The notes beneath the pieces are model-generated. The model saw nothing but the letters and a program-made list of their open reading frames with translations, was not told the origin of the DNA and ran no database searches. From positions 18,947-82,946 of the forward strand of contig JBAXUB010000001.1 of assembly GCA_037129895.1 (NCBI GenBank): a DNA stretch of 64,000 nt, written 5' to 3'. Origin of the DNA: Candidatus Tayloriibacteriota bacterium. Lineage in GTDB: Bacteria > Patescibacteriota > Minisyncoccia > Phycocordibacterales > PALSA-1337. Positions within the stretch are counted from its first letter, which is position 1; each line of letters starts with the position of its first letter. Shown here piece by piece: positions 608-37,957 of the stretch. Both the position numbers and the translations under genes were made by a program.

Positions 608-1045
608 ATTTTGTTTGCACTCAGTGACCCTTAAACTGGGATCCTCTATGTTTTCGACGTCGAGGAACTGACTGCGATTACTTATAATGTAATACGAGAC
701 TACCATAATATTGGCCTCTATGCAAGAGTATGACTCATTCTGGGTGCTTTTCATGCAGGTTGAAAAACACCTGTAAAAGAGGTGCCTAGACGATAGCATT
801 CCATAGATAAAATCCTGATAAAATCTGTATAAAGAAATGATAAAAAAGTAATAAAGAAAAGTATAAAGAATTAGAAATATATTTATGCCAGGGACCACAA
901 CATCTTTATTACAACTCTGCGGATGAAGGAAACTAAATATTTTCTTACTAATATGCGCACCACCAGACAGTCCTCGAGTCACAAAAAGGGTTTCTGTGGT
1001 TTTGGAACATTGGTCCTAGACCGATGGTTTTAAAACGCCAATAAC

Positions 1046-4528: not shown

Positions 4529-5818
4529 CTATATATGAAAATACGACTTGAAGACTTCTGGATCTTTGAATTTACCGATAATGGCCATATTGAGTCCCCT
4601 ATTAACGAAAACTTCATTCGCCAATGCCTTTATATCTTCTGCGGTTACAGAATCCACCTTCTTCATGAATTCCTCCGGCGTATCTATCTTCCTCTTCAAG
4701 ATTTCCTGAAAACCACAATACTCCGCACGTGACTCCGATGTCTCAAGTTCGAGTAATGTAGTGCCGGAAATATAATCCTTGACCTTCTTCAATTCACCGG
4801 CACTGACGAGATCGGTTTTCAATATTTTACATTGATTCAATATCTCCTTTATCGCCTCCTCGACTCTGGCATTATCTACACCCGCCGAGATAGTGAGGTC
4901 TCCATGATCTGTGAACGGATCGTGTGAAGCACGAATGTAATAACATATACCGAGCTCATCTCTCATCTTTGAAAATAATCTCGAACTCATACCCCCGCCG
5001 AGCAGGGTTGTAAGTACGGTCATAGCTGGTATTCTCGGATCATTGATAGAGAACGTTCTCGAAGCAATCACGAGATGTGTTTGATCAGTTTCTTTGAATA
5101 AAGTCTTAATGGCCGGTTCCTCCTGGGACTCGACAACTGGGAGCTTCGGCTTATTAATATCGGTGGCAACAGTCGCGAACATCTTCTCTATTTTGTTGAT
5201 CGTGGCCTTTTCATCGAATGATCCGGAAACCAATACTGTCGTAGCAGAACTCACGTAATGATCCTTCCTATAGCTAACAAAATCAGCACGACCAAAAGAT
5301 TTGATATTATCCTCAGTACCCAAGACACTCCAACCTGCAGGACTATCGCCAAACATAAGCTCCGACAAGACTTCATGAACTCTGCGTTGAGGAAGATCGT
5401 TATACATGCGTACTTCTTCGATGATCACACCTTTCTCTTTGTTTATCTCTGACTCATCGAAAAGCGGATTCATATACATATCTGAGACAATATCCAATAT
5501 TTCATCCAAACGATGTGACGCCGCTTTGGCATAGTAGCCAGTGAATTCTTGAGTGGTAAAAGCGTTGTACTGAGCACCCACTGAATCTAATTCGCGAGAT
5601 ATATCGCTGGCTTTTGGTCTCCTCGGTGTACCCTTGAAAACCATATGCTCCAAGAAATGAGATATGCCATTCTGTTTCTTTGTCTCATATTTCGAGCCAG
5701 CTTCAACCATGACTAATACTGTGACCGAAGGATTCTCAGCCATTGGTACAGTAACGACTCTAAGTCCGCTTTTTAATATTGTTTTATTGAATTTCATATA
5801 TTCTAACAAACTACTCAT
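4529..5818 (-). CDS. M16-family (insulinase/pitrilysin-like) zinc peptidase
   Basis: Inverted zinc motif HFLEHMVF (HxxEH) near the N-terminus; about 430 aa. Confidence 0.8.
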   Translation of the reverse strand: MSSLLEYMKFNKTILKSGLRVVTVPMAENPSVTVLVMVEAGSKYETKKQNGISHFLEHMVFKGTPRRPKASDISRELDSVGAQYNAFTTQEFTGYYAKAASHRLDEILDIVSDMYMNPLFDESEINKEKGVIIEEVRMYNDLPQRRVHEVLSELMFGDSPAGWSVLGTEDNIKSFGRADFVSYRKDHYVSSATTVLVSGSFDEKATINKIEKMFATVATDINKPKLPVVESQEEPAIKTLFKETDQTHLVIASRTFSINDPRIPAMTVLTTLLGGGMSSRLFSKMRDELGICYYIRASHDPFTDHGDLTISAGVDNARVEEAIKEILNQCKILKTDLVSAGELKKVKDYISGTTLLELETSESRAEYCGFQEILKRKIDTPEEFMKKVDSVTAEDIKALANEVFVNRGLNMAIIGKFKDPEVFKSYFHI

Positions 5819-7151
5819 TCCCTATGCCGATTTTTTGCTTCAAATATTTGAGCAGATCAGCTTCGGTAACTCTCTCCTGTTTACCTGAATCACGATCTCG
5901 AACAGTTACACCTGTACCTTTCTCTATAGTCTCAAAGTCAACAGTGACGCAGAGTGGCGTACCGATCTCATCTTGACGACGATAACGTTTTCCTATATTG
6001 CCATTATCATCATAGTCAGTCATCGGTATCTCCTTCTGAATCGTCTTGAATATCTCCTCTGCTTTCTTTATGAGCTCCGGTTTATTCCTTAGCAACGGAA
6101 ATACGGCCACCTTATAAGGTGCTACCCTCGGATGAAGCTTGAGATATGTTCTCTTGTCACCACCTAAGTCATCTTCAGTATATGCATCACAGAGTATAGC
6201 GAGTACTGTCCTATCTAGTCCGAATGATGGCTCTATACAATGTGGTATGAATCTCTCTTTGGTTTCTTCATCATAATAGGAAAGATCAACTTTACTGAAA
6301 TCAGAATGCTGTTTGAGATCGAAATCTCCACGATAGGCCAATCCATATAATTCCTTTTTACCAAAAGGAAAATCAAACTCAAAATCGATAGTTCGTTTCG
6401 AATAGTGTGCACGGTCAGCCTGTGCCACTTCCAACTCGTGGACTTTGGAAGCGTCTAGCCCGACATCGGCCGTGAATGCGAGAACTTCTTTCCTGAAATA
6501 TTCAAATGATGTCTCCCACAGTTTTGGATTGACGAAATACTCTATTTCCATCTGTTCAAACTCGCGAGATCGGAAAAGGAAATCCCTAGGCGCTATCTCA
6601 TTACGGAAAGCCTTTCCTATCTGTGCCATACCAAACGGTAGTCTCGGATGTTGAGTGTCCAATACATTCTTGAAATTCACGAACATTCCCTGTGCAGTCT
6701 CTGGTCGTAGATATGATACCGACGAAGCGTCTTGGATAGCTCCAACATGAGTCTCGAACATCATATTGAACTTCCTCTCTTCACCCAAGTCTCCACCACA
6801 ATCTGGACACTTCTTTTTGTTAGTAGCATCACCTTCTATCTGATCGGCACGAAATCTATGCTTGCATTTCTTGCACTCGACGAGTGGATCAGCGAAGCCT
6901 GATGCGTGACCACTAGCTTGCCAGACTCTCTGATTCATGAGGATGGCTGCATCAACTCGGAACATGTTTCTCTTCCCCACAACGAAGCGGCTGTACCAAG
7001 CATCTTTGATGTTAGATTTCAACGCTTCTCCGAAAGGACCATAGTCCCATGTACCGGCTAAACCGCCATATATCTCTGAACCTTGGAATATAAAACCACG
7101 TCGCTTACAAAGTGCGACTACCGCATCCATTTTGTCTTCTTGTTTATTCAT
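5811..7151 (-). CDS. glyQS: Glycyl-tRNA synthetase, class II alpha2 type
   Basis: N-terminus ...RRGFIFQGSEIYGGLAGTWDYGPFG... is characteristic of dimeric GlyRS. Confidence 0.9.
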   Translation of the reverse strand: MNKQEDKMDAVVALCKRRGFIFQGSEIYGGLAGTWDYGPFGEALKSNIKDAWYSRFVVGKRNMFRVDAAILMNQRVWQASGHASGFADPLVECKKCKHRFRADQIEGDATNKKKCPDCGGDLGEERKFNMMFETHVGAIQDASSVSYLRPETAQGMFVNFKNVLDTQHPRLPFGMAQIGKAFRNEIAPRDFLFRSREFEQMEIEYFVNPKLWETSFEYFRKEVLAFTADVGLDASKVHELEVAQADRAHYSKRTIDFEFDFPFGKKELYGLAYRGDFDLKQHSDFSKVDLSYYDEETKERFIPHCIEPSFGLDRTVLAILCDAYTEDDLGGDKRTYLKLHPRVAPYKVAVFPLLRNKPELIKKAEEIFKTIQKEIPMTDYDDNGNIGKRYRRQDEIGTPLCVTVDFETIEKGTGVTVRDRDSGKQERVTEADLLKYLKQKIGIGNE

Positions 7152-7196
7152 ATCGCTATTCTACACTTAAAAAGGTAACAGTGACAAGTATAAATA

Positions 7197-9131
7197 CTAC
7201 TTCACCACCACACCATCTCCATCATTATATATTGGGTCTGTACTGAATCTCGTTGAGAGCTCCTCTTGTGTACTAGTCAATTGTGTTCCTGTAAACGCAT
7301 CTGCCGCAGTTAGAGATGTCTGATTGACCAGAGTTACTGGCTGACCGATCTGGTTCACCGCTGGAGTAACTGACAATTGGAATGATACTTCTCTCCTTCT
7401 CAATGAATTCAATGTATAAGTACCAACATTTCCAACTACCCAAGTGACGCGACCACTATTCGGGTCATAAGTAATATTTTCATTACTTGGATTGAAGACG
7501 TTTAACCATTTGACTGAAGGCGGTAAAGTGGTTGTAACTTGTGCATTTCCAACAGCGTTTGAAGTATTGTCTACATTCCATATTATTGTGAAAGTTGAAG
7601 GCTGTTCTACTTTCGGAGGTATTGGTCCAGTATTCACGAATGGTCCAACACTACGCACAACTCTACCAGACAGGCTCACGCTAGAAGAGACTCTGATATT
7701 ACGTGCAACCACTGAATGCAAATTACTAGAAACACTAGTCTCCTGTGTACGATCTCCAGAAACACTCGTCGATAGAGTCACCAATGGATTGGTTACAGCC
7801 CGAACCGAGGAACCGAAATCTCTTGGAGTGAGACGGAAAGATACAGTACCTTTAGACCCCGCTCCTACACTAGCGAATTCTGGATTTGTTTGTTGATTCC
7901 AGACGATCTCATCTGAACTGGAGTTAAAATATCCTCTATCAGGCGACACCTTGGTCTTGTCATATGCAGAACCAGATAGTTTCAATGTAATGATTAGATT
8001 TGATACAGATACTGGCAGATTGTTGACCCAGCTCACCTCTACCTGATCTTCTTGTCCGAACTGTCCGACATAATCACTATTTGAACTGTTACCATTTATT
8101 GACATAACCAACGATATGAAAGGCTTTTGCACGGTCATATCCTGCTCCGCTGCAACATATTGAGTCCCTATGAGCGTAGCATCTGATACACTCGTTGCTC
8201 CTGCCGTGAAGCGAAAGACTTTCGTATCACTATTTTCTCCCGTCAGTTTGCCGTGAATCGTTACTACCCTCTCCGCACCAGCTGGTATATCACCGATTTT
8301 CCATATCGTATTGTTTGTCTGTGGTTTCAAATCAGCAGATATGAAGGTGAAGCCAAATGGATACTGAGATTTCAATAATATATTTTTCAATGTTTCTTGC
8401 GAGTTTGATTTTACTTTTACGGTCATATCGAATTCTTGACCAGATGACACTTCTTTATATGAATCAACCGTTAAGCTTATCGGTGATGAGTTGATGAGGA
8501 CATCATAAGTCTTGCTCTTGGTAAAAAGTGAGTTTGATCCTTTGACTTTATACGTAACATTGACGGCGATCGTCTTCTGCATATTTTCTTCACCGAATAT
8601 TATGGCTCTAACTATTTTCTCCGACGACTTGCCAGCCGCCAAGTCACCAACCAATTCATGATAGGTCTTCATCTCCTTCGTCGAATCATTGGGGTCTGTT
8701 GTGCCTGCTGGGAAATCAACCGCCAAGTCAGCCGTCTGTAAGTCAACATTATTTCGATTCGTCACAATGACGCCGAAAGATACTGGCGTACCGCCAGGTA
8801 TAGAAACTGGACCATTGATACTGATATCTATATTGTCTGCCGAAATGAGATTGGCACCATTTAGAAACAAATATGCTCCGAGACCTATAGCGATGACACA
8901 GAATATTACTGAACCGATCAATATCTTCTTCAAATATGACATAGAGTGATCTTCGAAATTTTGGTTAAGTGTCGTCTCCACAGGCTTCTCTACCGGCTCT
9001 TCCCATGAAGTCTTCATCTCTGACGGCTTGTCATTGAAGCGCAGCTTGCGCCTAGTTCGCACGTCAGGAGCACCTCTCGAATACAGAGATTTCTTCAATT
9101 CTTCAATGTAGCTTTTATCTTCTGACTCCAC
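7197..9131 (-). CDS. Large membrane-anchored surface protein: N-in, one TM, Ser/Thr/Asn/Val-rich beta-like ectodomain. Function unknown.
   Basis: Single TM ILIGSVIFCVIAIGLGAYLFL after a charged N-terminus. The remainder is a low-complexity beta-rich extracellular region. Confidence 0.5.
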   Translation of the reverse strand: MESEDKSYIEELKKSLYSRGAPDVRTRRKLRFNDKPSEMKTSWEEPVEKPVETTLNQNFEDHSMSYLKKILIGSVIFCVIAIGLGAYLFLNGANLISADNIDISINGPVSIPGGTPVSFGVIVTNRNNVDLQTADLAVDFPAGTTDPNDSTKEMKTYHELVGDLAAGKSSEKIVRAIIFGEENMQKTIAVNVTYKVKGSNSLFTKSKTYDVLINSSPISLTVDSYKEVSSGQEFDMTVKVKSNSQETLKNILLKSQYPFGFTFISADLKPQTNNTIWKIGDIPAGAERVVTIHGKLTGENSDTKVFRFTAGATSVSDATLIGTQYVAAEQDMTVQKPFISLVMSINGNSSNSDYVGQFGQEDQVEVSWVNNLPVSVSNLIITLKLSGSAYDKTKVSPDRGYFNSSSDEIVWNQQTNPEFASVGAGSKGTVSFRLTPRDFGSSVRAVTNPLVTLSTSVSGDRTQETSVSSNLHSVVARNIRVSSSVSLSGRVVRSVGPFVNTGPIPPKVEQPSTFTIIWNVDNTSNAVGNAQVTTTLPPSVKWLNVFNPSNENITYDPNSGRVTWVVGNVGTYTLNSLRRREVSFQLSVTPAVNQIGQPVTLVNQTSLTAADAFTGTQLTSTQEELSTRFSTDPIYNDGDGVVVK

Positions 9132-9820: not shown

Positions 9821-12800
9821 TTATCTAATATCCAACTTCACATTCAATTCACCGACAGCCTGACTCTCCCCAGTCACACTCGAGAACGATATACCTTTGA
9901 CTGAAGTAGCTGCAGAAATCGCCTTCTCATTCTTTTCAATAAATGTCTTGCCGGCTACATCCGTATCAACTATGAGAGATACCTTATCATTCACGGTAAA
10001 GCCCCTATCCTTGCGAAGATCCTGAATAACGCGTATGAGTTCACGAACTGTTCCCTCTTCTTTCAGTGCTGGAGTTATAGCGATATCTAACTCGACTTCT
10101 TGAGTGAGACCCGCCAAAAACATAACTTCCTTTACATTGACTTCATCCATGATGAGTTCACAGAACTCTGGACTGAGTCCCGCCGACTTCTCTGTATTAT
10201 TGACCGTCAATTTTGCCAAAGGTTGTCTAACGTTGATCTTGGCTTTCATACGGGCTTCGAGACCTTTCGAAGCAATGTCTCTAACTATTTGCATGTTCTC
10301 GATCAATTTCGCATCGGATTTTCCAACTTCTGGCCAAGACGTGAGATGTACGCTATTAGTAGAGCCGAACAATTCCTGATGTAGATACTCAGCATAGAGT
10401 GGAGTAAACGGCGCCATCAATCTCGCTAGAGTTGAGAGCACGTATCTAGTAGTAGATAGAGCCTGTATCTTATCTACACCATCATTCTTGAACCGATCTC
10501 TAGATCTACGCAGATACCATTGAGAGAGTTCAGCTATAAAATCACGGATCGCCCTGGTCGGTTCAAAGAATTTGTAATTGTCTAGATTTTTCGTTGTTGT
10601 TTCTATCAACTGACTTAGTTTGGCGATGATCCATCGATCCAAGATATTGGAAGACAACGATCTGTCCACTGCCCTCTTTTCTAATGTAGCATCACCCAAC
10701 TCCTCGACACTTCTATTCTCATATAGTTTATAGAATGCTGTAACATTGGATATGAGATTGAATACTTTCTTCACAACCTCATCAACAGTTTTCTCATCAA
10801 AATTCTTTGAATCTCCTGGCTGATTGACGGAATACATCCAAAAACGTAGTGCGTCTGCTCCATATTTATCCATCATATCCCAAGGACTAACGACGTTGCC
10901 GATGGACTTACTCATCTTCTTGCCTTTGGCATCCAGGATATGTCCCAAACAGATTACATTCTTGTACGCCTTACCTTTACCCATGATCGCTCCGATAGCA
11001 TGCAATGTATAGAACCATCCACGTGTCTGATCGATCGCCTCCGAGATGAAATCCGCCGGATAAGCAATGTCCCGACCGATCTCTTCATTCCCGCCCAACT
11101 CATGCTCCTGCGAAAACGGCATCGATCCGGAATCGAACCAGACGTCCAAAACTTCCCTAGCACGACTCATCGTCCCGCCACACTGGCAATCCAACTTTAC
11201 ATCATCTATGAATGGTTTATGTAGATCAAGCTCATAATCCGCATTGTGAGGCAAGATAGAAAAATCCACTGGTCGCACTTCTGCGTTTGCGATGAAATCT
11301 TCCTGCTTTCGGTAGATTCTAGCACTATCGATATCATGACCTGCTGCAGCTGCAAACAATGTATAGGCCGGAGTCTCATGAGTGACGATCAATATCGTTT
11401 TGCCCTCATATTTACTTTCCATATCATATAGGAATTCACCCATACGTCTCTTTATATCCATATAGTCTTCCCCTCCTTCTGGTTTCCATAACCATCGGTC
11501 ATTCTCGCCGCATGCACGAGCCAATTCATCCACACCCTTCCCATCGAAAATTCCCGCACCATATTCTCTGATCCGATCATCTACAATAACTCTCGACGAA
11601 TCGAGGCCGACTACATCACGTACTATCTCAGCAGTTTCTCTAGTTCGTAGGAGTGGAGATGTAAAGATAAGATCGATTTTTGATGATACCAACTTCGCAG
11701 CAGAATCACTCACGTCTTTCTCGCCTTTCTCGGTCAAGTTGATGATGGAAGTAGCCGCAGTATCTAGAATATTCCTAACATTGTTCTCTGCTTCGCCATG
11801 TCTCATGACCAAGTATTTGTTCTTCGATCTCTTGGCCAATTCAGAAACAACACCAACCACTCTAGTAGATTTACACTTCTCACATGTCCATACAGGCAAC
11901 GGCGTCCCCCAATAACGCTCTCTCGATATTGCCCAATCCTTGATCTCACGTAGCCACTCACCAAAACGACCCTCCTTGATATGTTCGGGTTCCCAATGTA
12001 TCCCCTCATTTTCCTTAACTAATGTGTCGCGCAAACTAGACATCCGCAAATACCATGAATCGCGAGCGAAATATATGAGAGGTGTATGACAACGCCAACA
12101 GAATGGATATGTGTGTTCATACTTTTCCTTGGCAAACAAAAGTTTTCGTCCAGCCAAATCCTTTATGATAGTGACATCCGTGCCAGGATCTTTGACGAAA
12201 AGACCAGCCAATGATCCGGCCTCTTTCTTGAAAGTACCATCATCATTCACCAAGTGGAATTTCGGAAGCCCTACCTTCGTCCCCAATTCAAAATCATCCT
12301 GACCATACATAACTGCTATATGAACGATTCCAGTTCCGTCAGACGTTGTAACGAACGGAGCGGCGTAGACTCTATATGCATTCGCTAGCTTCTCCTTTTC
12401 GGTACCTTGCACATTGTCCTTGAGAAAGGGATACAAAGGGTTATAGGCGAGACCTACCAATGTTCCACCTTTCACAGTTTCCAACACGCTCGCATTTTCA
12501 AAATGTGACTTCAATGCTTCGAACCTCTCTTTCGCCAAAATCACCACTTCCCCGCTTGCGACTTTTACTTTTACATATTCGATATCGGCATTAATCGCTA
12601 AACCAACATTCCCTGGCAACGTCCACGGAGTAGTCGTCCATGCCAACAAGTATGTATTAGCTTCACCAACGACTTCAAATTTTACATAAACTGATAGATC
12701 TTTGACCGTCTCATATCCTTGCGCCAATTCGTGTGAAGAAAGACCCGTCCCACAACGTGGGCACCACGGAACTACTTTGTAGTCTTTATAAAGTAGTTTC

Positions 12801-13345
12801 TTGTTTTCAGCAGTTTTGATTATACTCCAAACCGACTCTATATATTGCGACTTGTAAGTTATATATGGATTCTCTAGGTCCACCCAATAACCCATACGAT
12901 CAGTGAAGTCCTCCCATTCATGTACGTACTTCCAGACACTCGCTTTGCACTTCTCATTGAATAGGCCTATGCCGTATGACTCTATTTCTTTTTTGGACTT
13001 CAGCCCGAGTTCCTTTTCTACTTGTAACTCAACTGGCAGACCATGTGTATCCCATCCACCTTTTCGACGTACATGATAACCCTGCATCGTCTTGTATCTA
13101 GGAATTGCATCCTTGAAAGCACGCGCCTCTAGATGATGGATACCTGGTCTACCGTTAGCTGTCGGAGGTCCTTCATAAAATACGAACTCGCCCTTTGGAG
13201 ACTCCTTGCCCAATGACTTTTCGAAAACGCTATTCTCTTTCCAATACTTCAAAATCGCCTCTTCACGCAATGCATGGGGACTTTTCACTGAATTTGTTGA
13301 ATACTGGCTATTCTCTCGATCAGTTTTGTTGTTTGGAAGAGGCAT
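9821..13345 (-). CDS. ileS: Isoleucyl-tRNA synthetase with an inserted histidine-phosphatase (PGAM-like) domain
   Basis: PGIHHL (HIGH) and KMSKSIGN are present, with an editing domain. Residues about 508-700 (YLVMRHGEAENN...LIVTHETP...) form a nested RHG phosphatase domain. Confidence 0.9.
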   Translation of the reverse strand: MPLPNNKTDRENSQYSTNSVKSPHALREEAILKYWKENSVFEKSLGKESPKGEFVFYEGPPTANGRPGIHHLEARAFKDAIPRYKTMQGYHVRRKGGWDTHGLPVELQVEKELGLKSKKEIESYGIGLFNEKCKASVWKYVHEWEDFTDRMGYWVDLENPYITYKSQYIESVWSIIKTAENKKLLYKDYKVVPWCPRCGTGLSSHELAQGYETVKDLSVYVKFEVVGEANTYLLAWTTTPWTLPGNVGLAINADIEYVKVKVASGEVVILAKERFEALKSHFENASVLETVKGGTLVGLAYNPLYPFLKDNVQGTEKEKLANAYRVYAAPFVTTSDGTGIVHIAVMYGQDDFELGTKVGLPKFHLVNDDGTFKKEAGSLAGLFVKDPGTDVTIIKDLAGRKLLFAKEKYEHTYPFCWRCHTPLIYFARDSWYLRMSSLRDTLVKENEGIHWEPEHIKEGRFGEWLREIKDWAISRERYWGTPLPVWTCEKCKSTRVVGVVSELAKRSKNKYLVMRHGEAENNVRNILDTAATSIINLTEKGEKDVSDSAAKLVSSKIDLIFTSPLLRTRETAEIVRDVVGLDSSRVIVDDRIREYGAGIFDGKGVDELARACGENDRWLWKPEGGEDYMDIKRRMGEFLYDMESKYEGKTILIVTHETPAYTLFAAAAGHDIDSARIYRKQEDFIANAEVRPVDFSILPHNADYELDLHKPFIDDVKLDCQCGGTMSRAREVLDVWFDSGSMPFSQEHELGGNEEIGRDIAYPADFISEAIDQTRGWFYTLHAIGAIMGKGKAYKNVICLGHILDAKGKKMSKSIGNVVSPWDMMDKYGADALRFWMYSVNQPGDSKNFDEKTVDEVVKKVFNLISNVTAFYKLYENRSVEELGDATLEKRAVDRSLSSNILDRWIIAKLSQLIETTTKNLDNYKFFEPTRAIRDFIAELSQWYLRRSRDRFKNDGVDKIQALSTTRYVLSTLARLMAPFTPLYAEYLHQELFGSTNSVHLTSWPEVGKSDAKLIENMQIVRDIASKGLEARMKAKINVRQPLAKLTVNNTEKSAGLSPEFCELIMDEVNVKEVMFLAGLTQEVELDIAITPALKEEGTVRELIRVIQDLRKDRGFTVNDKVSLIVDTDVAGKTFIEKNEKAISAATSVKGISFSSVTGESQAVGELNVKLDIR

Positions 13346-17212: not shown

Positions 17213-17275
17213 CTATTTGCAGACCTGAGGAGAAACCGGCTTTTTCAAAACAGCATCGATCTTTCGAGCAATCTT
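17213..17275 (-). repeat. Authentic glyA 3' end; direct-repeat partner of 16035..16097
   Basis: See the paired repeat feature. Confidence 0.8.
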
Positions 17276-18430
17276 TACAAAATCTTTCTCTTTCCTACCA
17301 CGAGTAGTCTCTGCGGCGGTGCCAAGTCGTATGCCTGACGGGTCAGCTGGTGGACGTGTGTCGAAAGGAATGGCGTTCTTGTTGACGATGATACCTGCTT
17401 GTTCGAGTCTAGTACTAGCCTCTTTACCAGTAACTCCGCCAGCACCATTTTCATTCACATGACCGTCATGCCAAGTATCTACCAAAACTAGATGACTATC
17501 CGTGCCACCAGAGATGACCCTCCAACCAAACTTTCTCAGGTGTTCCGCCAAAACTGCAGCATTCTTCACAACTTGTGCAGCGTATTTCTTGAATTTTGGA
17601 CTAGCTGCTTCTTTGAGTGCCACTGCAACAGCAGCAATCTGATTTATATGTGGTCCACCCTGTAGTCCAGGAAAAACTGCCTTGTCTATCTTCTTGTCCA
17701 ATTCCCTATCATCGCGTCTCACGAATATGAGAGCTGCGCGTGGGCCACGGAGAGTTTTGTGTGTAGTCGTCGTAACAATATCAGCATATGGAAAAGGTGC
17801 AGGATATGCACCACCAGCTACCAATCCAGCGATATGAGACATATCAACCATGAGTAAAGCCTGAGCCGCGTCCGCAACTTCCCTCATCTTGACCCAATCA
17901 ATAATACGAGGATAGGCCGTATAGCCAGCAACTATGATCGCCGGCTTTTCTGCCACAGCCTTTTCTCGAAGCTGATCGTAATTCAATACTTCAGTTGTCT
18001 TATCTACACCATATGGCACCTGAGTCCAAAACTTTCCTGTAGCAGAAACTTTGTGCCCATGCGTAAGGTGTCCTCCTTGATCGAGTGACATCCCCATGAT
18101 CTTACCGCCTTGTGGGACTAACGCGGTATAGACTGCCAGATTCGCTGGTGAACCCGAGAGAGCTTGCACGTTTACATGCCACTTATCATGATCGAGCCCG
18201 AATAATTCTAACGCCCTTTCCATACACAGACTCTCTATCTTATCTACTATCTCATTACCCCCATAATATCTCTTTCCCGGATAACCCTCCGCATATTTAT
18301 TGGTAAGTTCTGAGCCAAGTGCCTCTAACACATCATTCGAAACATAATTCTCCGAAGCTATCAGGTTGACGACTTTTTTCTGTCTATTCTTTTCTGACAA
18401 TATTAATTTTTTTATTTGTTTATCTTTCAT
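17213..18430 (-). CDS. glyA: Serine hydroxymethyltransferase (start at internal Met MKDKQIKK)
   Basis: LIASENYVS...YAEGYPGKRYYGG signature; PLP-lysine region present. Confidence 0.9.
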   Translation of the reverse strand: MKDKQIKKLILSEKNRQKKVVNLIASENYVSNDVLEALGSELTNKYAEGYPGKRYYGGNEIVDKIESLCMERALELFGLDHDKWHVNVQALSGSPANLAVYTALVPQGGKIMGMSLDQGGHLTHGHKVSATGKFWTQVPYGVDKTTEVLNYDQLREKAVAEKPAIIVAGYTAYPRIIDWVKMREVADAAQALLMVDMSHIAGLVAGGAYPAPFPYADIVTTTTHKTLRGPRAALIFVRRDDRELDKKIDKAVFPGLQGGPHINQIAAVAVALKEAASPKFKKYAAQVVKNAAVLAEHLRKFGWRVISGGTDSHLVLVDTWHDGHVNENGAGGVTGKEASTRLEQAGIIVNKNAIPFDTRPPADPSGIRLGTAAETTRGRKEKDFVKIARKIDAVLKKPVSPQVCK

Positions 18431-18751
18431 ATGTATATCGTAACATAACATACCGCCTACAAAAAATGGTCCGCTACACCCAGTGTGTAACGGACCACCA
18501 ACCACCCATACAAAGGGAAGAAATCAACGACACACGACGCGACTTTAGTGACAAAATAGAATTTGTCCAATCCTTAGCCACTCATACGGTGATATGTCGT
18601 TTTTGTTTGACCATTGAAGGTCTGCGAGCCAAATGGCCCAGTACGGGACGCGAACTCATAGTTCGAATCTCTGATGAAAAGATTACTCCTCGTCCGCAAT
18701 TAATGCAAGCTAGTTATACACACGTTATCCACAGGCTATTCCGTGACTCGT

Positions 18752-19402
18752 CTACTTGAGCAGTTTGCGCATCTCCTCCAAGAAATCACTTTTCACTTCC
18801 TCGAAAGGCCTATTGGCGTCTATCGTAACATGCGGCACTTTCTTCAGAAATTTCAAATACCCCTTCCTCACCTTTTCGTGGAATATGATCTTTCTATTAT
18901 CGAAATGATCATACTTGGTAGTATTTCTGTTCGACTCATTGCGAGATCTCGCACGACGCAGACCAACCAGAGGATCCACATCCACAAACACATAGAGATC
19001 TGGGACATGTACCAACTTGTCACGAAGTAACCAGAAGATTTCCTCGAGATCGCCATTTGTTTGAGCTGCGACTTGATATGCAAAAGAAGAACCATCAAAT
19101 CTATCGGCCACCACCGACATTCCCGATTTCAATGACGGCTCGATCACATTCACCACATTGTCGAAGCGGGCGGCAAACATAAGACACAGTGTCGTCTCAG
19201 CCGGCGCAGTCTTCGCTAGAGGATTCTTGAGTGCAGCATTCCTGATGATCTCCGCATAAGGCGATCCTCCAGGTTCACGAGTTATGAGAGCAACACCCGG
19301 CATCTCCTTCGCGAGAGCGGCCATGAGTGAAGATTTACCGGAACCTTCTCCACCTTCAACAGCGATGAACATCGGTCTCTTTTTATTTCTCAATTTTTTC
19401 AT
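18752..19402 (-). CDS. tmk: Thymidylate (dTMP) kinase family dNMP kinase
   Basis: P-loop FIAVEGGEGSGKSS and TREPGGS motifs. Confidence 0.85.
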   Translation of the reverse strand: MKKLRNKKRPMFIAVEGGEGSGKSSLMAALAKEMPGVALITREPGGSPYAEIIRNAALKNPLAKTAPAETTLCLMFAARFDNVVNVIEPSLKSGMSVVADRFDGSSFAYQVAAQTNGDLEEIFWLLRDKLVHVPDLYVFVDVDPLVGLRRARSRNESNRNTTKYDHFDNRKIIFHEKVRKGYLKFLKKVPHVTIDANRPFEEVKSDFLEEMRKLLK

Positions 19403-19447
19403 GATTTTACTTTCTACATCACTTATACCAGAGAGAGATGACAGCGT

Positions 19448-19930
19448 CTACCTCTTCCTTGTGAATAACTCAGTCGCTCCTTCGACTAGGAAGACTCTAC
19501 TTATCCCCGCTTTGATCATTCGATCCCAGCAAGGCTTGCAACACCACCAATGACCATACAGGTATAGATCGGCTCCCCTGACTTTACCGCCACCATGTCT
19601 CGATATAGCATCCTTGACCGCCCTTGATTCTGCATGTTGTCGACAAGAAGCACAACCTGGACAAAGCCAATACTTCTGTCCTGATGGTATTTTCAACAAT
19701 CTTCTCACACAAAACCTTTCCTTATGAAAAGTTAGCAGTTTACTGTTCTTGATTGCTGACTGATTGGCACCTTTTCCTAGAATAACACCATCCCTGACGA
19801 CGACAGCACCCGTCGGGTGTTGTGTATCCGTTGACTTTTCCTCGCATAGCTTCATCGCCTCCTTCATATACAGATTGTTCGATGATACATATTCAACACT
19901 CCTGCCTTCTGGCATATATGGATAATTCAT
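19448..19930 (-). CDS. dCMP deaminase family protein (zinc-dependent CDA fold)
   Basis: HAE zinc motif (CRQHAESRAV) and PCxxC (CCKPCWDRM), plus an additional CPGC zinc site as in dCMP deaminases. Confidence 0.75.
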   Translation of the reverse strand: MNYPYMPEGRSVEYVSSNNLYMKEAMKLCEEKSTDTQHPTGAVVVRDGVILGKGANQSAIKNSKLLTFHKERFCVRRLLKIPSGQKYWLCPGCASCRQHAESRAVKDAISRHGGGKVRGADLYLYGHWWCCKPCWDRMIKAGISRVFLVEGATELFTRKR

Positions 19931-20006
19931 TTTGATAAATCCGCATTAAGAACCATTAACTAATAATTGTAAACTGTTTACTATTTCTTTAATTATATAT
20001 AATAGA

Positions 20007-20849
20007 ATGATTATGACCAAGTTTGACCAAATATACCAAGACATTGTGAAAAACATTATGAAGAAAGGCATGGTCGAGTTCAGTGAGAGAACTGGACACG
20101 AAACGAAAGTTCTAGTCGGTGTACATTTCCAAGTCGACATAGAGAAAGACGGCTTCCCCATCCTCACACTCCGCAAGTCGCCGATAAAGATGTTCGTCGC
20201 GGAACAAGTATGGTTTTTGTCTGGATCTAGAAAGCCAGAGGACTTCCTCCGAAATTATACGCACATATGGGATGACTTCACCAATCCAGGCGATGTCGTC
20301 ACTGTCGCATACGGATATAGATGGCGTAAACATTTTGGCAGAGACCAGATAGGACTATTAGTCGATCTATTAAAAAAAGAACCAAGCTCTAGACAAGCTG
20401 TCGTAGTAACATGGGATCCTGCACAGGATGGATTATCTATCGTAAAAAAGAAAAATGTTCCTTGTCCATATACATTCACCGTTAATATCGTTGCTGGCAG
20501 ATTGCACCTGCACAATATAGTCAGATCCAACGATGTAATGCTCGGATTCTCAGCGGATGTCCCAGGATTCGCACTACTCCAATGTATTCTCGCTCAAAAG
20601 CTAGGGGTGAGACCTGGTATATACTCTCACTCGATTTCCAATGCTCATATATATGATACACATTATGACGGTGCGAAAGAGTTGATCAAGAGGAAAAACA
20701 AACACAAGAAGATAACCCTGACTTTACCTAAGGACGCCTTTGACAGAGCAGAAAAGAAAGATCCGACACTCGTCGACCAGATAGTGGAAAACCTCGGAAA
20801 ACAATATAAACCGATGGAACCGATAAAGGGCTTGAAATTAATATTATAA
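20007..20849 (+). CDS. Thymidylate-synthase-fold (ThyA family) enzyme with Asp at the Asn177-equivalent. Possibly a dCMP methyltransferase or hydroxymethylase rather than canonical TS.
   Basis: Gap-free by-eye alignment to E. coli ThyA: ERTGHET, GFPILTLRKS, VWFLSGS, the VPCP nucleophile and VRSNDVMLGFSADVPGFALL. Confidence 0.8.
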   Translation: MIMTKFDQIYQDIVKNIMKKGMVEFSERTGHETKVLVGVHFQVDIEKDGFPILTLRKSPIKMFVAEQVWFLSGSRKPEDFLRNYTHIWDDFTNPGDVVTVAYGYRWRKHFGRDQIGLLVDLLKKEPSSRQAVVVTWDPAQDGLSIVKKKNVPCPYTFTVNIVAGRLHLHNIVRSNDVMLGFSADVPGFALLQCILAQKLGVRPGIYSHSISNAHIYDTHYDGAKELIKRKNKHKKITLTLPKDAFDRAEKKDPTLVDQIVENLGKQYKPMEPIKGLKLIL

Positions 20850-20861
20850 CCAACACACCCA

Positions 20862-21491
20862 ATGTCTATCATCACAAAAACTGAAATAGTAGAACTGATA
20901 AAGAATGGTGTACTTTCCATACGACCAGCTCTGGATAAGTTCCAATTACAAGAACACTCTATAGACCTACGTCTCGGCTATACTTTCATGATACCAAAGA
21001 TGTGGCACATGACTCCGAAAGGCCGTGAATCATTGGACATCACCCATTTCGATAAGCGTAACCATGAATACTTCGAAGTTGTCGAACTCGAACAAGGACA
21101 GTATTTCGAATTATTACCGCAGGAATACATCCTCGTCTCAACCTTAGAGACGATAAAGATGCCTAACAACTTGATGGGCGTTCTCTACCCGAGAGCTTCG
21201 ACCAATCGAAAAGGGCTTTCATTGGACCTTTCAGGAATAATAGATGCTGGCTATGACGGACAGTTAGTATTGCCTATCAGGAACAATACCCGCTCTCAAG
21301 CTATCAGACTATTCCCTGGCGAACGCCTATGCCAAGTTGTTTTCCAGGAGTTGAAAAGTTCTGTTACACCGAAACCAGGCAAATATCATCAGCGAGACAT
21401 CATCGAGGGTGTTGTCACTGAAAATAGAGAGGAGGCTGATCTCATATCCAGTGGCGATATTAAAGTGTTAAAGGAAAAGTTTAAGGTGTAA
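20862..21491 (+). CDS. dCTP deaminase/dUTPase-superfamily protein. Motif III is dUTPase-like and lacks the Dcd catalytic Glu.
   Basis: Dcd-like N-terminus. GIIDAGYDGQLVLPIRN...FPGERLCQVVF closely matches dUTPase motif III. Confidence 0.7.
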   Translation: MSIITKTEIVELIKNGVLSIRPALDKFQLQEHSIDLRLGYTFMIPKMWHMTPKGRESLDITHFDKRNHEYFEVVELEQGQYFELLPQEYILVSTLETIKMPNNLMGVLYPRASTNRKGLSLDLSGIIDAGYDGQLVLPIRNNTRSQAIRLFPGERLCQVVFQELKSSVTPKPGKYHQRDIIEGVVTENREEADLISSGDIKVLKEKFKV

Positions 21492-21520
21492 AATTACTGA
21501 ACGTATATTAATAATCGGCT

Positions 21521-21632
21521 TCGTGGGAAGTTTCCCCTCACGACTCTGCGGAAGGAAGGAAATGACACATTTTCTGATAAATAACCTCCCCATCATCGCA
21601 GTCCTCGAGTCGTTCGAGAAAACTTCCCACGA
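21521..21632 (+). promoter_or_regulatory. Structured leader candidate upstream of the DHFR gene
   Basis: 13-bp inverted repeat TCGTGGGAAGTTT/AAACTTCCCACGA encloses nested CGACTC/GAGTCG and CTGCG/CGCAG helices. Confidence 0.35.
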
Positions 21633-21664
21633 AACCGAAATAATCACAACAAATAATCACCACC

Positions 21665-22165
21665 ATGAAATGCTTCATAATCTCATGTCTCACAGCTGAC
21701 GGCTATATAGGGAAACATTCCACTCACGCAGCGATGTGGACGAGTAAAGAGGACAAGAAACGCTTCATCGAACTAACGAAGAAGGCCGGTGTGATCGTCA
21801 TGGGTCAAAACACTTGGACAACCCTCGGTGGCAAACCATTGAAAGACAGACTCAATATCGTGTACTCACCTACCCCGCTCGAACCTGTCGCAGGTATGGA
21901 AGTCACGACCAAGGATCCTGTGGAATTACTGCGTGACCTAGAAGCTCGAGGCTTCAAGGAAGTTGCCATATGTGGAGGTTCTCAGATATACACAATGTTT
22001 ATGAAAGCTGGCCTCGTCGATACTCTCTACCTCACTATTGAACCGATAGTATTCGGCGATGGTATGAGACTGTTCAAAGAGGATCTAAATAGTAAATTGA
22101 CACTGACTGAATGCACGAAGACAGACGGCGGGACATTGCTTCTAACATATTCTGTGATCAGGTAA
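21665..22165 (+). CDS. folA: Dihydrofolate reductase family protein
   Basis: 166 aa with DHFR/RibD-C-like pattern (IVMGQNTW..GKPL..R.NIV.S). Sits beside the thyA-family gene. Confidence 0.6.
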   Translation: MKCFIISCLTADGYIGKHSTHAAMWTSKEDKKRFIELTKKAGVIVMGQNTWTTLGGKPLKDRLNIVYSPTPLEPVAGMEVTTKDPVELLRDLEARGFKEVAICGGSQIYTMFMKAGLVDTLYLTIEPIVFGDGMRLFKEDLNSKLTLTECTKTDGGTLLLTYSVIR

Positions 22166-22276: not shown

Positions 22277-22783
22277 TCAAAATGTAGAGAGTTTCCCTCT
22301 ATTGGACTCTATCGAACGTGACAGACTACTAACACATTCGACAAGCTCGTCCAACTTTCTGAAATTGAAATGCCGTACCAAGTCCGGCCTGTCCAGATGA
22401 GCAAACTTGATCGACTCTAGAAACGAGATCGTCCGATTGGCTTGTGCATGGTCACCTAGAGTGAGTCCAACCAGGAGAGGCTTGCGAGCTTTCGCACGTG
22501 CCTCGACTTCTTGCACACACCGAGGGGTTGAGCACACTGACAACCAGATCATGAGATCACAAGTCTTCACAGGATCACTGATCCGAGGAACTTCGACAGG
22601 TAGATCATCCGTGATCTTCAAGACCGGCTCCACCGCATATACGTGGAATCCGGGCAGCTGTCTCAGTTTTTCCAAGAAATACAATACGTCCGTGAACAAA
22701 AAACCATCCGGAATACCCGGGGCCAACGCCAAGGGAAAAGTTACATATGTTTTCATAATCAGCTCTGAAACAAAGCCTACCAT
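22277..22783 (-). CDS. Hypothetical protein of higher GC than its neighbours
   Basis: 168-aa ORF. No motif recognised. Local GC is near 50% against about 40% around it. Confidence 0.5.
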   Translation of the reverse strand: MVGFVSELIMKTYVTFPLALAPGIPDGFLFTDVLYFLEKLRQLPGFHVYAVEPVLKITDDLPVEVPRISDPVKTCDLMIWLSVCSTPRCVQEVEARAKARKPLLVGLTLGDHAQANRTISFLESIKFAHLDRPDLVRHFNFRKLDELVECVSSLSRSIESNRGKLSTF

Positions 22784-25074: not shown

Positions 25075-25908
25075 CTACCTTCTCGTATCACACAAATCAA
25101 TCAAGTTTTCGAATAACGCGAGAACTGTCATCGCCCCTACCCCACCAGGAACTGGTGAAATCGCCCTGACTACTCCTGAAACTGCAGCAAAATCAACATC
25201 CCCAACCAATCTCTCAGTGCCTATACGAGAAATGCCAACATCTATAACGACCTGATCAGGATTGACGTGCTCAACTCTTATAAGTCCAGGCTTTCCAGTC
25301 GCCACTATCAATATATCTGCTTCCTTTGTACCAAAAACCAGATCGGCTGTCTGACTATGACAAACCGTCACTTTCGCACCAGCGGTCTCACACATTGCGG
25401 CAATAGGTTTTCCAACTAGATCAGACCTACCAACAACTGTTACATTCTTTCCTTTGAGTAAAAATCCGTAACTATCCAATAATTCCTTTATACCCCTAGC
25501 TGTTGCTGGCATTATACCCTCGCCGTGTGACCATTTGGCAACGTTCGCTGACGTGAGAGCATCAACGTCCTTATCTGGATCTATAGCCTCGATCACTGCA
25601 AATTTATCAATGCTTGAAGGCAGTGGAAGCTGAACGATGATGCCATTTATACTGTCGTCGTTATTCAATGATTCTATATGATCTAGGAGTTCTCGTCGTG
25701 ATATACCTTCACTAAACTGTTTGTGGAGAACATCTACACCGATTTTCTCTGCAAACAACTTTTTTGCACGGATAAATGATGTCGAATCAGCCCTTTCACC
25801 AACTTGAATGATGGCCAATTTTGGCATAAAGGAAAGTTTCGCGACCCCATTTTTCAATAGAGGAAGCCTCGTTTCCCTAGTTTTTCGGCCATCAATAATG
25901 ATAGTCAT
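25075..25908 (-). CDS. folD: Bifunctional methylene-THF dehydrogenase / methenyl-THF cyclohydrolase
   Basis: MTIIIDGRK... start; LAIIQVGERADS and PGGVGAMTV motifs. Confidence 0.9.
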   Translation of the reverse strand: MTIIIDGRKTRETRLPLLKNGVAKLSFMPKLAIIQVGERADSTSFIRAKKLFAEKIGVDVLHKQFSEGISRRELLDHIESLNNDDSINGIIVQLPLPSSIDKFAVIEAIDPDKDVDALTSANVAKWSHGEGIMPATARGIKELLDSYGFLLKGKNVTVVGRSDLVGKPIAAMCETAGAKVTVCHSQTADLVFGTKEADILIVATGKPGLIRVEHVNPDQVVIDVGISRIGTERLVGDVDFAAVSGVVRAISPVPGGVGAMTVLALFENLIDLCDTRR

Positions 25909-26008
25909 GATATGAAGAGCATACCATAGAAAATTACCAAACAGGAAATCGTAGGAACTACTCGTACACATAACTAAATCAATATTGATATATTCAACTC
26001 ATACATCT

Positions 26009-36627: not shown

Positions 36628-37179
36628 CTACTCATAAGTCGGGGACTCCTCATTTATACCAGATTTATGGTTAGTAAGTCGAGCCATGGCATAGAACAAC
36701 GAAGAAAGCCTGTTCATGAACGCCAGTGTCTCCTTACCAACTTTTATCTCCCCCTTCTCCTCTCCCGCCACTATTCTACGCTCTGCCTTGCGTGCCATCG
36801 TACGTGAAATATCTAACATTGCAGCCATCTCTGTGCCACCAGAAACAAAAAACGTTTTTATTGGTGGCATCGCTTTCTCCATAGCATCAATCCATGTTTC
36901 CATCTTTTTGACCTTATTTCCATCGATCGTTTTCTCGGCACCAGCTACTTCTGCTTGGACGATGAATAGGCCATTCTGAGCCCAATCGATCATTTGCTCA
37001 ATTTTCATTCCATCCACTTTCCATCTGAACGATTTTGACCTGACCTTGACCATACCTAGAAAAGAATTGACCTCGTCCAAAGTTCCCAAAGCTTCGGCTG
37101 TCATAGAATTCTTGGACATTCTCTGATCACAACCAAATTTCTTTGTTTTTCCATCATCGCCTTTTCTCGTGTATAACAT
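36628..37179 (-). CDS. ATP:cob(I)alamin adenosyltransferase, PduO type
   Basis: MLYTRKGDDGKT... N-terminus typical of PduO/MMAB. Confidence 0.7.
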   Translation of the reverse strand: MLYTRKGDDGKTKKFGCDQRMSKNSMTAEALGTLDEVNSFLGMVKVRSKSFRWKVDGMKIEQMIDWAQNGLFIVQAEVAGAEKTIDGNKVKKMETWIDAMEKAMPPIKTFFVSGGTEMAAMLDISRTMARKAERRIVAGEEKGEIKVGKETLAFMNRLSSLFYAMARLTNHKSGINEESPTYE

Positions 37180-37180
37180 G

Positions 37181-37265
37181 TGCGCGAGAGAGGACTTGAA
37201 CCTCCAAGCCCATAAGGGCACATCCACCTCAAGGATGCGTGTCTGCCAATTTCACCACTCGCGCG
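37181..37265 (-). tRNA. tRNA-Leu (GAG), class II with long variable arm
   Basis: GCGCGAGTGGTGAAATTGGCAGACACGCATCCTTGAGGTGGATG...GGTTCAAGTCC...CTCGCGCA. Confidence 0.9.
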
Positions 37266-37282: not shown

Positions 37283-37957
37283 TTAACCCTCAAGACTCTT
37301 TAACGTTCTTACTATAGCTAATATAGCTTCAAATTTCAACTTCTTTCTAGTTAAATACAGAATCTCTCCACCCATGTATAAATGAGTCATAATCTTTTCC
37401 GCTTCACTTTTAGCGTATTTTAATTGGAAACATGAACTATTTTTGCTTTTTGTAACATGACCTTTGACGTTGATGCGATTCAACAGTTCCCATCTTATCC
37501 AACTTAGAAACACTGGACTTGCCGAACAAAATCCTAAATACCAAAGGAACGATACTTTCCACCGCCTATCATAATATGAATGTATATAACCATCTCCATC
37601 GAATACACCACGAAGAAAATGAAAGAAGTACTCCGAGGGTATCGCTATCTCTTTTAATACTTTAGACTTCGCAGGGCCAATACCAATCTGAAGTAGGAAC
37701 TTAACAAAATTTACGTCGCCAATTTGGATCCGATAAGTGTGACTGAACTTATAACCACTATAATTGTGACCAATGTTGCTGTGGATATTCAAACATCTCA
37801 TAATGTTTCTTATTTGTTCGAAATCCTTTGAGACAAAAGATACATGCCTCCTATCTCCATATACACACCCATCTGTAACAAATAGTCCGATAGCATATGC
37901 AAAATTTGCTGACCACTCGATTTTTACTTTTCCTTTTGGTTTTGGTCCTCTTTTCAT
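37283..37957 (-). CDS. Free-standing two-motif LAGLIDADG homing endonuclease, directly 5' of tRNA-Leu
   Basis: Motif 1 FAYAIGLFVTDGCV; motif 2 FLRGVFDGDGYI. Confidence 0.85.
   Translation of the reverse strand: MKRGPKPKGKVKIEWSANFAYAIGLFVTDGCVYGDRRHVSFVSKDFEQIRNIMRCLNIHSNIGHNYSGYKFSHTYRIQIGDVNFVKFLLQIGIGPAKSKVLKEIAIPSEYFFHFLRGVFDGDGYIHSYYDRRWKVSFLWYLGFCSASPVFLSWIRWELLNRINVKGHVTKSKNSSCFQLKYAKSEAEKIMTHLYMGGEILYLTRKKLKFEAILAIVRTLKSLEG

Follow-up and report, generated by a model that had tools for sequence, protein, structure and literature searches.

We analysed a 64-kb stretch of a Candidatus (Ca.) Taylorbacteria chromosome (contig JBAXUB010000001.1; the whole stretch is referred to as the window) and found at positions 18752–22165 a cluster of five genes encoding a dTMP kinase (Tmk), a divergent zinc deaminase (Dea), a thymidylate synthase (ThyA) homologue, a Dcd-like protein (DcdL) and a dihydrofolate reductase (DHFR). 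The reading that we cautiously favour is that this cluster provides a route to dTMP that starts from dCTP, passes through 5-methyl-dCMP and has no uracil nucleotide intermediate. In the first step, DcdL would hydrolyse dCTP to dCMP and pyrophosphate (PPi). The ThyA homologue would then bind dCMP through Asp184 and use 5,10-methylene-tetrahydrofolate (methylene-THF) to form 5-methyl-dCMP and dihydrofolate (DHF), and the divergently transcribed Dea would convert the 5-methyl-dC nucleotide into the dT nucleotide (dTMP and NH3). Tmk would phosphorylate dTMP to dTDP, while DHFR would reduce DHF and serine hydroxymethyltransferase (SHMT) with FolD would reload the one-carbon unit. Such a scheme would be the E. 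coli route of Dcd, Dut and ThyA in permuted order: pyrophosphate removal, C5 methylation, C4 deamination. The gene content, residue states, sequence affinities and synteny that we describe are direct observations.

The initial annotation had described the five genes as a phage-type modified-pyrimidine module resembling the one that T4 uses to build hydroxymethyl-dCTP. The open reading frame (ORF) list and profile searches bear out all five ORFs and their families, and the genes are indeed neighbours. They do not form one co-directional run but two divergent units, with tmk and dea on the minus strand and thyA, dcdL and dhfr on the plus strand.

The proposal turns on the ThyA homologue (20007–20849, plus strand, 280 aa; PF00303, 2.4e-53, 181 bits), whose start is probably Met3 at 20013; its homologues are 278 aa long. 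The initial annotation had placed the whole call on the specificity residue of this enzyme, read as Asp, and had named a dUMP-type enzyme as the finding that would overturn it. We found that Asp184 lies opposite E. coli Asn177 in HMMER alignments to solved thymidylate synthases, and that Asp occupies this site in 118 of the 120 closest homologues, which are 70–100% identical and all from Patescibacteria (the 100%-identical entry is named Ca. Taylorbacteria). Asn177 (Asn229 in L. casei) hydrogen-bonds O4 and N3 of dUMP. Mutagenesis has identified it as the residue that lets dUMP in and keeps dCMP out (PMC8670742, PMC13326640, PMC5175136), and thymidylate synthase with the N177D or N229D substitution becomes a dCMP methylase (Liu & Santi 1992 and other work cited in PMC8670742). 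Positions 177 and 147 best separate phage contigs with modified cytosine from those with unmodified cytosine (PMC8670742), and S167 and R126, which mark deoxyribose preference (PMC5175136), are both present in the window protein. It also keeps the catalytic C146 together with E58, Y94, R126, R166, S167, D169, H207 and Y209 (E. coli numbering), and it differs from the E. coli enzyme by N177D, H147P, W83F, L143N and R127Q; its Asn150 is the residue at position 143. The invariant Asp at the specificity site places the window protein with the cytosine-specific, phage-type branch of the superfamily; the dUMP-type enzyme that would have overturned the initial annotation is not what we found. We strongly infer from these residues that it is a predicted dCMP C5-methyltransferase, with dCMP specificity and a methyl product.

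An exhaustive HMMER search of 1.84 billion representative proteins with the ThyA homologue as query gave the same picture. All 73 top-scoring 50%-identity clusters that cover site 177 have D177, most of them with P147 and F83, and N143 is present in 98 of 111 full-length D177 sequences. Canonical proteins with N177, H147, W83 and L143 appear only under about 140 bits. In a crude neighbour-joining (NJ) tree of ThyA sequences, the 19 N-types group together, joined by only one D-type, and the window protein falls elsewhere in the tree, with the D-types. Two members of the representative library merit separate mention. One (P0241) has D177 and F83, is otherwise canonical (H147, Q165, R127) and falls within the N-type clade; it may stand midway in evolution between enzymes specific for dUMP and those specific for dCMP. 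The other (P0124) is 2736 aa long and is matched by the ThyA query in 26 separate stretches, the best of them covering query residues 43–99, and may represent either tandem copies of a ThyA fragment or an error of assembly.

Other residues bear on whether the product would be methylated or hydroxymethylated. An acidic residue at position 143, which admits water, marks the hydroxymethylases T4 gp42 and MilA, and D169N marks 5-hydroxylases (PMC13326640). The window ThyA homologue has Asn143 and Asp169, the same as the ThyA of phage PaMx74, whereas T4 gp42 has Asp143; D177, N143, V144, P147 and F83 are all common to the window and PaMx74 proteins. The window protein is 40% identical to PaMx74 ThyA (184 bits) and 21% identical to T4 gp42 (35 bits), and its matches to solved ThyA proteins do not exceed 120 bits. 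Its best matches among 50,697 phage records are PaMx74, PaMx28 and related Pseudomonas, Xanthomonas, Stenotrophomonas and Janthinobacterium phages (E ~1e-45 to 1e-50), and T4-type td genes match at ~1e-28. A T4-like pathway, in which ThyA(Asp) would make 5-hydroxymethyl-dCMP for 5-hydroxymethylcytosine (5hmC or hmC) DNA or, after deamination, 5-hmdUMP, is thus a reading that we consider very unlikely. Asp177 is common to T4 gp42 and MilA, and phage deaminases selective for 5-methylcytosine (5mC) also take 5hmC (bioRxiv 2024.12.05.627091), which speaks for such a pathway. However, position 143 is Asn and not Asp or Glu, identity to gp42 is only 21%, and no glucosyltransferase or other hmC-tailoring gene was found among the ORFs of at least 120 aa screened in the window. 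Hydroxymethylases release THF, not DHF, by their known mechanism, so the linked DHFR speaks against them, and it fits a reductive methyl transfer with DHF release. The initial annotation's analogy with T4 hydroxymethyl-dCTP synthesis is therefore weak.

The phage relatives of the window enzyme offer a better precedent. In the DNA of PaMx74 and Xp12, 5mC takes the place of all C, and 5-methyl-deoxycytidine (5mdC) was formed in vivo by the Xp12 enzyme and by five of the seven related ThyA(D177) enzymes that were assayed (New England Biolabs preprint, bioRxiv 2024.12.05.627091). The same preprint reports that phage genes of the dCMP-deaminase family found in cis with ThyA(D177) are often selective for 5mC, proposes that they make dT from 5mdC, and describes the 5mC selectivity of these linked deaminases as polyphyletic; the literature offers no sequence criterion for it. 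In PaMx74, a nucleotide pyrophosphohydrolase gene directly upstream of thyA is followed by thyA, the deaminase and DHFR. We also found natural fusions of ThyA(Asp) in the representative library, with a deaminase of the cytidine deaminase (CDA) fold (P0139), with a PRA-PH nucleoside triphosphate (NTP) pyrophosphohydrolase (P0176) and with an HNH endonuclease (P0159). The first two support the association of pyrophosphohydrolase, ThyA(Asp) and deaminase as a triad.

We also examined how the cluster is distributed among cellular genomes. Relatives were confirmed at 230 stretches of GTDB species-representative genomes, so the module, which the initial annotation had thought unusual for a genome of the candidate phyla radiation (CPR), is not unusual within its class. 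Our comparison set consists of 81 loci (80 GTDB species representatives and one JGI contig) and includes Taylor-, Adler-, Kaiser-, Nomura-, Vogel-, Colwell-, Lipton- and Moranii-bacteria and Minisyncoccia. The lineage of each locus was judged by L11/NusG similarity and by named metagenome-assembled genomes; many third-party annotation labels ('uncultured Candidatus Saccharibacteria') are unreliable. The core, with the deaminase gene divergent from ThyA(Asp) and DcdL, is kept in essentially all 81 species loci. Dea is present in 80 loci, and of the 75 informative ones 71 have it next to ThyA(Asp) in divergent orientation; DcdL is present in 78, and in all 69 informative ones it immediately follows ThyA(Asp) on the same strand. 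The gene glyA occurs in 68 of the 81 loci, L11 in 60 and NusG in 55, while DHFR is in the cluster in 44, tmk in 38, and folD within 8 kb in 38. The cluster adjoins L11/NusG in about 60 of the 81 loci, and the order glyA-dea<>thyA-dcdL ... L11-NusG recurs in dozens of species-level genomes. Median identity across loci is 72% for ThyA(Asp), 70% for L11, 71% for GlyA, 79% for NusG, 53% for Dea and 48% for FolD. ThyA(Asp) is thus conserved to the same degree as L11, which is typical of an essential enzyme passed on by vertical descent and not of prophage cargo; in Paceibacteria the cluster is a housekeeping unit inherited in this way. For a cluster of this kind, an alternative dTMP route is a more economical reading than DNA hypermodification.

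The same synteny bears on the idea that the cluster is a prophage or a recently acquired mobile module in the CPR chromosome. The ThyA(Asp) branch is rich in phage sequences, and one phage contig in IMG/VR carries the same gene pair. Yet dozens of species-level genomes keep the synteny and diverge in these genes as they do in ribosomal ones, GC content is flat across the window, and no phage structural or integration genes were found in its 64 kb among the ORFs of at least 120 aa screened. We regard a prophage or mobile island as hardly credible, and the conserved L11/NusG and glyA synteny effectively refutes it. The phage-like contig (L084; IMG/VR UViG_3300036766_000613) encodes, at 5528–7719, Dut, a Dea homologue, an adenine methyltransferase with a DPPW motif and ThyA(Asp). 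Its Dea homologue is 35% identical to the window Dea and has HSE instead of HAE, and its ThyA(Asp) is 46% identical to the window protein and has the same C-terminal extension. The contig also carries a recombination exonuclease, ParB, HNH, and tail and lysis genes, and looks like a genuine phage. The pair of Dea and ThyA(Asp) hence circulates in phages too, presumably those of CPR hosts, and the contig may come from a phage that infects CPR bacteria and has the dCMP-methylase/deaminase pair in common with its host.

DcdL (20862–21491, plus strand, 209 aa) belongs to the Dcd/dUTPase fold, as first annotated (PF22769, 1e-32, 113.8 bits), and passes the Dcd model TIGR02274 with 116.4 bits against a cutoff of 92.8. 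Its LVLPIRN segment aligns with ITLELFN and ITLELSN of 4xjc and 2qlp, so that the deaminase Glu is replaced by Pro. This Glu (E138 in E. coli, E129 in M. tuberculosis) activates the deaminating water in Dcd (EC 3.5.4.13), and its replacement makes deamination by DcdL impossible by the known mechanism. Pro at the Glu site is at least 95% conserved in 77 DcdL orthologues, which keep the PRSS..NR and D.GY motifs. The closest solved relatives all belong to the Dcd family (4xjc, 69 bits; M. tuberculosis 2qlp, 52 bits; also 2qxx). We take 4xjc and M. tuberculosis 2qlp/2qxx to be bifunctional, dUMP-forming enzymes. DcdL falls below the Dut threshold (TIGR00576, 39.9 bits against a cutoff of 102.55), and its C-terminus lacks a glycine-rich motif V of the GFGSTG type. 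In 33 of the 81 loci a separate gene nearby encodes a canonical Dut of about 145 aa with such a motif, so DcdL is not just the dUTPase of the cell. No BLASTP similarity to T4 gp56 was detected. DcdL comes from a family that binds dCTP and some of whose members also hydrolyse the triphosphate, and from its gene context we propose that it is a dCTP pyrophosphatase supplying dCMP. In the window protein, residue 113 is Ala (PRAS) at the first Ser of the PRSS motif, a position otherwise at least 95% conserved; this change, peculiar to this genome, is the second by which the protein departs from the Dcd catalytic set.

Dea (19448–19930, minus strand, 160 aa; PF00383, 5.6e-15) is a divergent zinc deaminase of the CDA fold. 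The catalytic residues H99, E101, C131 and C134, which form the H-A-E and C-x2-C zinc ligands, are invariant in 62 homologues, and so are H69, C74, C90 and C93, the extra Cys cluster that the initial annotation had noticed. Dea scores far under the cutoff of all NCBIfam equivalogs (ComEB, TIGR02571, 21.6 bits against 219), and its best phmmer matches in the PDB, which are RibD, guanine deaminase and TadA, reach at most 27 bits. An AlphaFold2 (AF2) model with a predicted local distance difference test score (pLDDT) of 89.6 has a predicted CDA fold, and Foldseek returned generic CDA-fold proteins with template modelling (TM) scores of 0.4–0.54. The top TM-scores are those of dCMP deaminases (S. 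mutans, 0.54; PBCV-1 and human, 0.51), by a margin too small to be decisive. A tblastn search of the 50,697 phage records with Dea gave four weak matches only. Direct homology with the PaMx74 deaminase was considered and rejected, as BLASTP found nothing; because 5mC selectivity is polyphyletic, this dissimilarity is neither a counter-argument nor a support. Dea belongs to a CDA lineage of its own. The context of its gene suggests that Dea deaminates a 5-methyl-dC nucleotide, either mono- or triphosphate, to the dT nucleotide.

The remaining enzymes match standard families. Tmk (18752–19402, minus strand, 216 aa; PF02223, 3.6e-34) passes the equivalog TIGR00041 with 128.7 bits against a cutoff of 83.25, and its translation contains the P-loop GGEGSGKSS and a DR[YF] motif in DRFDGSSFAYQ. 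It is not a T4-type dNMP kinase akin to gp1, which corrects the initial annotation. DHFR (21665–22165, plus strand, 166 aa) was correctly called; it matches PF00186 (1.1e-16, 61.4 bits against a cutoff of 25) and PF01872 (3.5e-19), and its best PDB match is T. maritima DHFR 1cz3 (8.6e-25, 90.6 bits, residues 14–164). The two folate genes that the initial annotation had placed at the flanks are also there. The gene glyA, encoding SHMT (17213–18505, minus strand; PF00464, 9.2e-161; NF000586, 524.7 bits), directly adjoins tmk, and folD, encoding methylene-THF dehydrogenase/cyclohydrolase (25075–25971, minus strand; PF02882, 3.5e-54; PF00763, 3.9e-30), lies 3 kb off, past L11, NusG and a SIMPL protein, and is loosely associated with the cluster. 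The SHMT domain begins at residue 25 of the glyA ORF. A strong terminator-like hairpin at 18465–18499 (minus strand), with a 15-bp stem, seven GC pairs and a T tract, lies inside the nominal 5' end of glyA (GTG 18505), which suggests that the true start is probably an ATG near 18430. The hairpin probably ends the dea-tmk transcript or attenuates glyA.

Several observations weigh against the 5-methyl-dCMP route that we favour. At 122.1 bits, the ThyA homologue clears the cutoff (108.35) of TIGR03284, the NCBIfam equivalog for thymidylate synthase, and databases name it ThyA. A third of the clusters include a canonical Dut that would provide dUMP, an arrangement compatible with the classical route as well. 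The fold matches of Dea do not single out dCMP deaminases, and BLASTP finds no similarity between Dea and the PaMx74 deaminase. A deaminase-dead Dcd might hydrolyse dUTP or 5mdCTP, or might only bind nucleotides. More generally, every substrate assignment made here draws on residues, homology and context. One alternative is an ordinary dTMP pathway, in which Dea would convert dCMP to dUMP, DcdL would be a dUTPase, ThyA would methylate dUMP despite its Asp, and DHFR and SHMT would recycle folate. Each protein matches a standard family, Tmk passing its equivalog as ThyA does, the CPR literature calls the gene thyA, and the Dut of 33 of the 81 clusters could feed such an enzyme. We nevertheless find this pathway doubtful. 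The invariant Asp177 goes together with P147, F83 and N143, precisely the combination that 5mC-phage enzymes have, mutagenesis shows that Asn at this site admits dUMP and excludes dCMP, and canonical ThyA proteins are more distant from the window enzyme (120 bits) than phage dCMP methylases are (184 bits). Moreover, DcdL stands beside a real Dut in those clusters, so that a dUTPase role would be redundant.

A different alternative accepts dCMP methylation and takes it further. In pre-replicative DNA modification as in Xp12/PaMx74, 5-methyl-dCMP would be phosphorylated and incorporated, 5mC would replace some or all C, DcdL would remove dCTP, and Dea would divert part of the product to dT. The dCTP-removing enzyme, ThyA with Asp, deaminase, DHFR and kinase do make up the full gene set of a 5mC phage, DcdL is universal in the cluster, and the Dea and ThyA(Asp) pair is found on the phage contig at 35% and 46% identity. 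We still think it unlikely that the cluster serves this end. The kinase is a standard Tmk and not a broad-range dNMP kinase, full depletion of dCTP would be drastic for a cell, globally 5mC-substituted CPR DNA goes unmentioned in the papers that we consulted on thyA and dCMP methylases, and the sequence itself cannot show modification. There is likewise only a small chance, in our estimate, that 5-methyl-dCTP is incorporated alongside the proposed dTMP synthesis, with chromosomal C partly or wholly 5mC made at the nucleotide level and DcdL purging dCTP. If this were true, these would be the first cellular organisms with pre-replicative, phage-style base substitution, which could act as a self-mark during the scavenging of host nucleic acid or as a defence against restriction.

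The surroundings of the cluster are ordinary CPR housekeeping. The dea and thyA genes are separated by a 76-bp, AT-rich divergent gap (19931–20006), presumably a shared promoter region, and a minus-strand promoter-like site, TGGTCA-16-TATAAT at 20019–19992, matches there by consensus only. An Rfam scan for riboswitches and other RNA elements in the cluster gaps returned tRNAs only across the window. No ThyX or canonical ThyA was present among the ORFs of at least 120 aa screened within the 64 kb, and a phmmer screen of ORFs of at least 50 aa found no Dut in the window. Between DHFR and L11 lies orf168 (22277–22783, minus strand), which has no Pfam or NCBIfam match. It was considered as a sixth member of the cluster and rejected, because it has no Pfam match and is absent from all 81 related loci, where L11 usually closely follows DHFR or DcdL; orf168 is a lineage-specific insertion. 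Other genes of the window encode aminoacyl-tRNA synthetases, L11, NusG, L19, PolA, RuvAB, a Mur ligase, type IV pilus proteins and seven tRNAs.

A few of these neighbours have features of their own. An isoleucyl-tRNA-synthetase-like ORF (9821–13345, minus strand, 1174 aa) contains a His_Phos_1 domain (PF00300, 1.2e-28) at residues 512–676, an unusual domain insertion inside a class I synthetase catalytic domain. Two free-standing ORFs (37283–37957, minus strand, and 44726–45748, plus strand) resemble LAGLIDADG_3 homing endonucleases, one of them beside tRNA-Leu and L19. A PduO-type cob(I)alamin adenosyltransferase (36628–37227, minus strand; PF01923, 5.5e-43) would fit a class II ribonucleotide reductase dependent on adenosylcobalamin (AdoCbl) as the source of deoxynucleotides; the nominal 5' end of its ORF overlaps tRNA-Leu (37180–37264), so its start is probably further downstream. 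In a 292-aa ORF with a GTG start (104–982, minus strand), the ribosomal protein S6 domain covers only residues 138–233, which reflects either a wrong start codon or long N- and C-terminal extensions.

To our knowledge, textbook cellular thymidylate synthesis always proceeds via dUMP, by ThyA or ThyX, and the order in which dCMP is methylated first has so far been documented only for 5mC phages. We found no earlier description of the 5-methyl-dCMP route in CPR in the open-access literature, where CPR papers treat the gene as an ordinary thyA, and the phage preprint (bioRxiv 2024.12.05.627091) does not mention CPR or cellular genomes. If the proposal is correct, a very abundant bacterial class uses a third arrangement, in which dCMP is methylated before it is deaminated, and the 'thyA', 'dcd' and 'dCMP deaminase' calls in such Paceibacteria genomes (230 confirmed stretches) need revision. 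Minimal genomes could then drop the steps that produce dUTP, which bears on the avoidance of uracil in DNA, and there would be a cellular source of 5mC-selective deaminases, enzymes of a kind that methylome sequencing now employs. It would also reopen the question of where phage cytosine-modification modules come from, with transfer conceivable in either direction between CPR and phage. Minisyncoccus archaeiphilus is a Paceibacterium already in culture.

Compared with known systems, the window cluster shares individual elements with several. Like the T4 system (gp42, gp56 dCTPase, gp1 dNMP kinase, cd, frd and td), it has a predicted cytosine-specific enzyme of the ThyA superfamily with Asp, joined to proposed dCTP hydrolysis and a deaminase. 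It differs from T4 in that its ThyA is 21% identical to gp42 and has no acidic residue at 143, gp42 in turn does not have the 143/147/83 signature, its DcdL has no BLASTP similarity to gp56, its kinase is Tmk and not of the gp1 type, and no glucosyltransferase was found among the screened ORFs of the window. With the canonical dTMP pathway (Dcd, Dut, ThyA, FolA, Tmk and GlyA, including the step of EC 2.1.1.45), it shares families, folate cycle, end product and dCTP feedstock, as well as the same three chemical transformations of pyrophosphate removal, C5 methylation and C4 deamination. The proposed route would permute the order of these steps, with the CDA-fold enzyme deaminating after methylation; ThyA has Asp and not Asn, Dcd lacks its deaminating Glu, and dUTP and dUMP would not be intermediates. 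DcdL has in common with the DCD-DUT enzymes of M. jannaschii, M. tuberculosis and B. halodurans the fold, the phosphate-binding PRSS..R and the Asp of D.G[YFW], whereas their catalytic Glu (E138 in E. coli numbering) is an invariant Pro in DcdL, which would leave at most the pyrophosphatase half-reaction.

The 5-methyl-dC module of Xp12/PaMx74 is a closer model than T4. In both phage and window, the functions of NTP pyrophosphohydrolase, ThyA(Asp), deaminase and DHFR are clustered, and the deaminase lies in cis with ThyA(Asp), with dT from 5mdC as the proposed outcome. The phage module is viral, whereas the window cluster is cellular, chromosomal and vertically conserved, and adds cellular Tmk, SHMT and FolD. 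Where the phage has a MazG/PRA-PH enzyme as its pyrophosphatase, the window has a Dcd-derived protein, and the window deaminase represents another lineage of the CDA fold without BLASTP similarity. The phage DNA is 5mC-substituted, while the window cluster is known from its genes alone. The chemistry and gene logic are thus already known from phages of the Xp12/PaMx74 type; what is new here is a conserved chromosomal housekeeping cluster in a major bacterial class, with a deaminase from a separate CDA lineage and a deaminase-dead Dcd that appears to take the dCTP-hydrolysing role.

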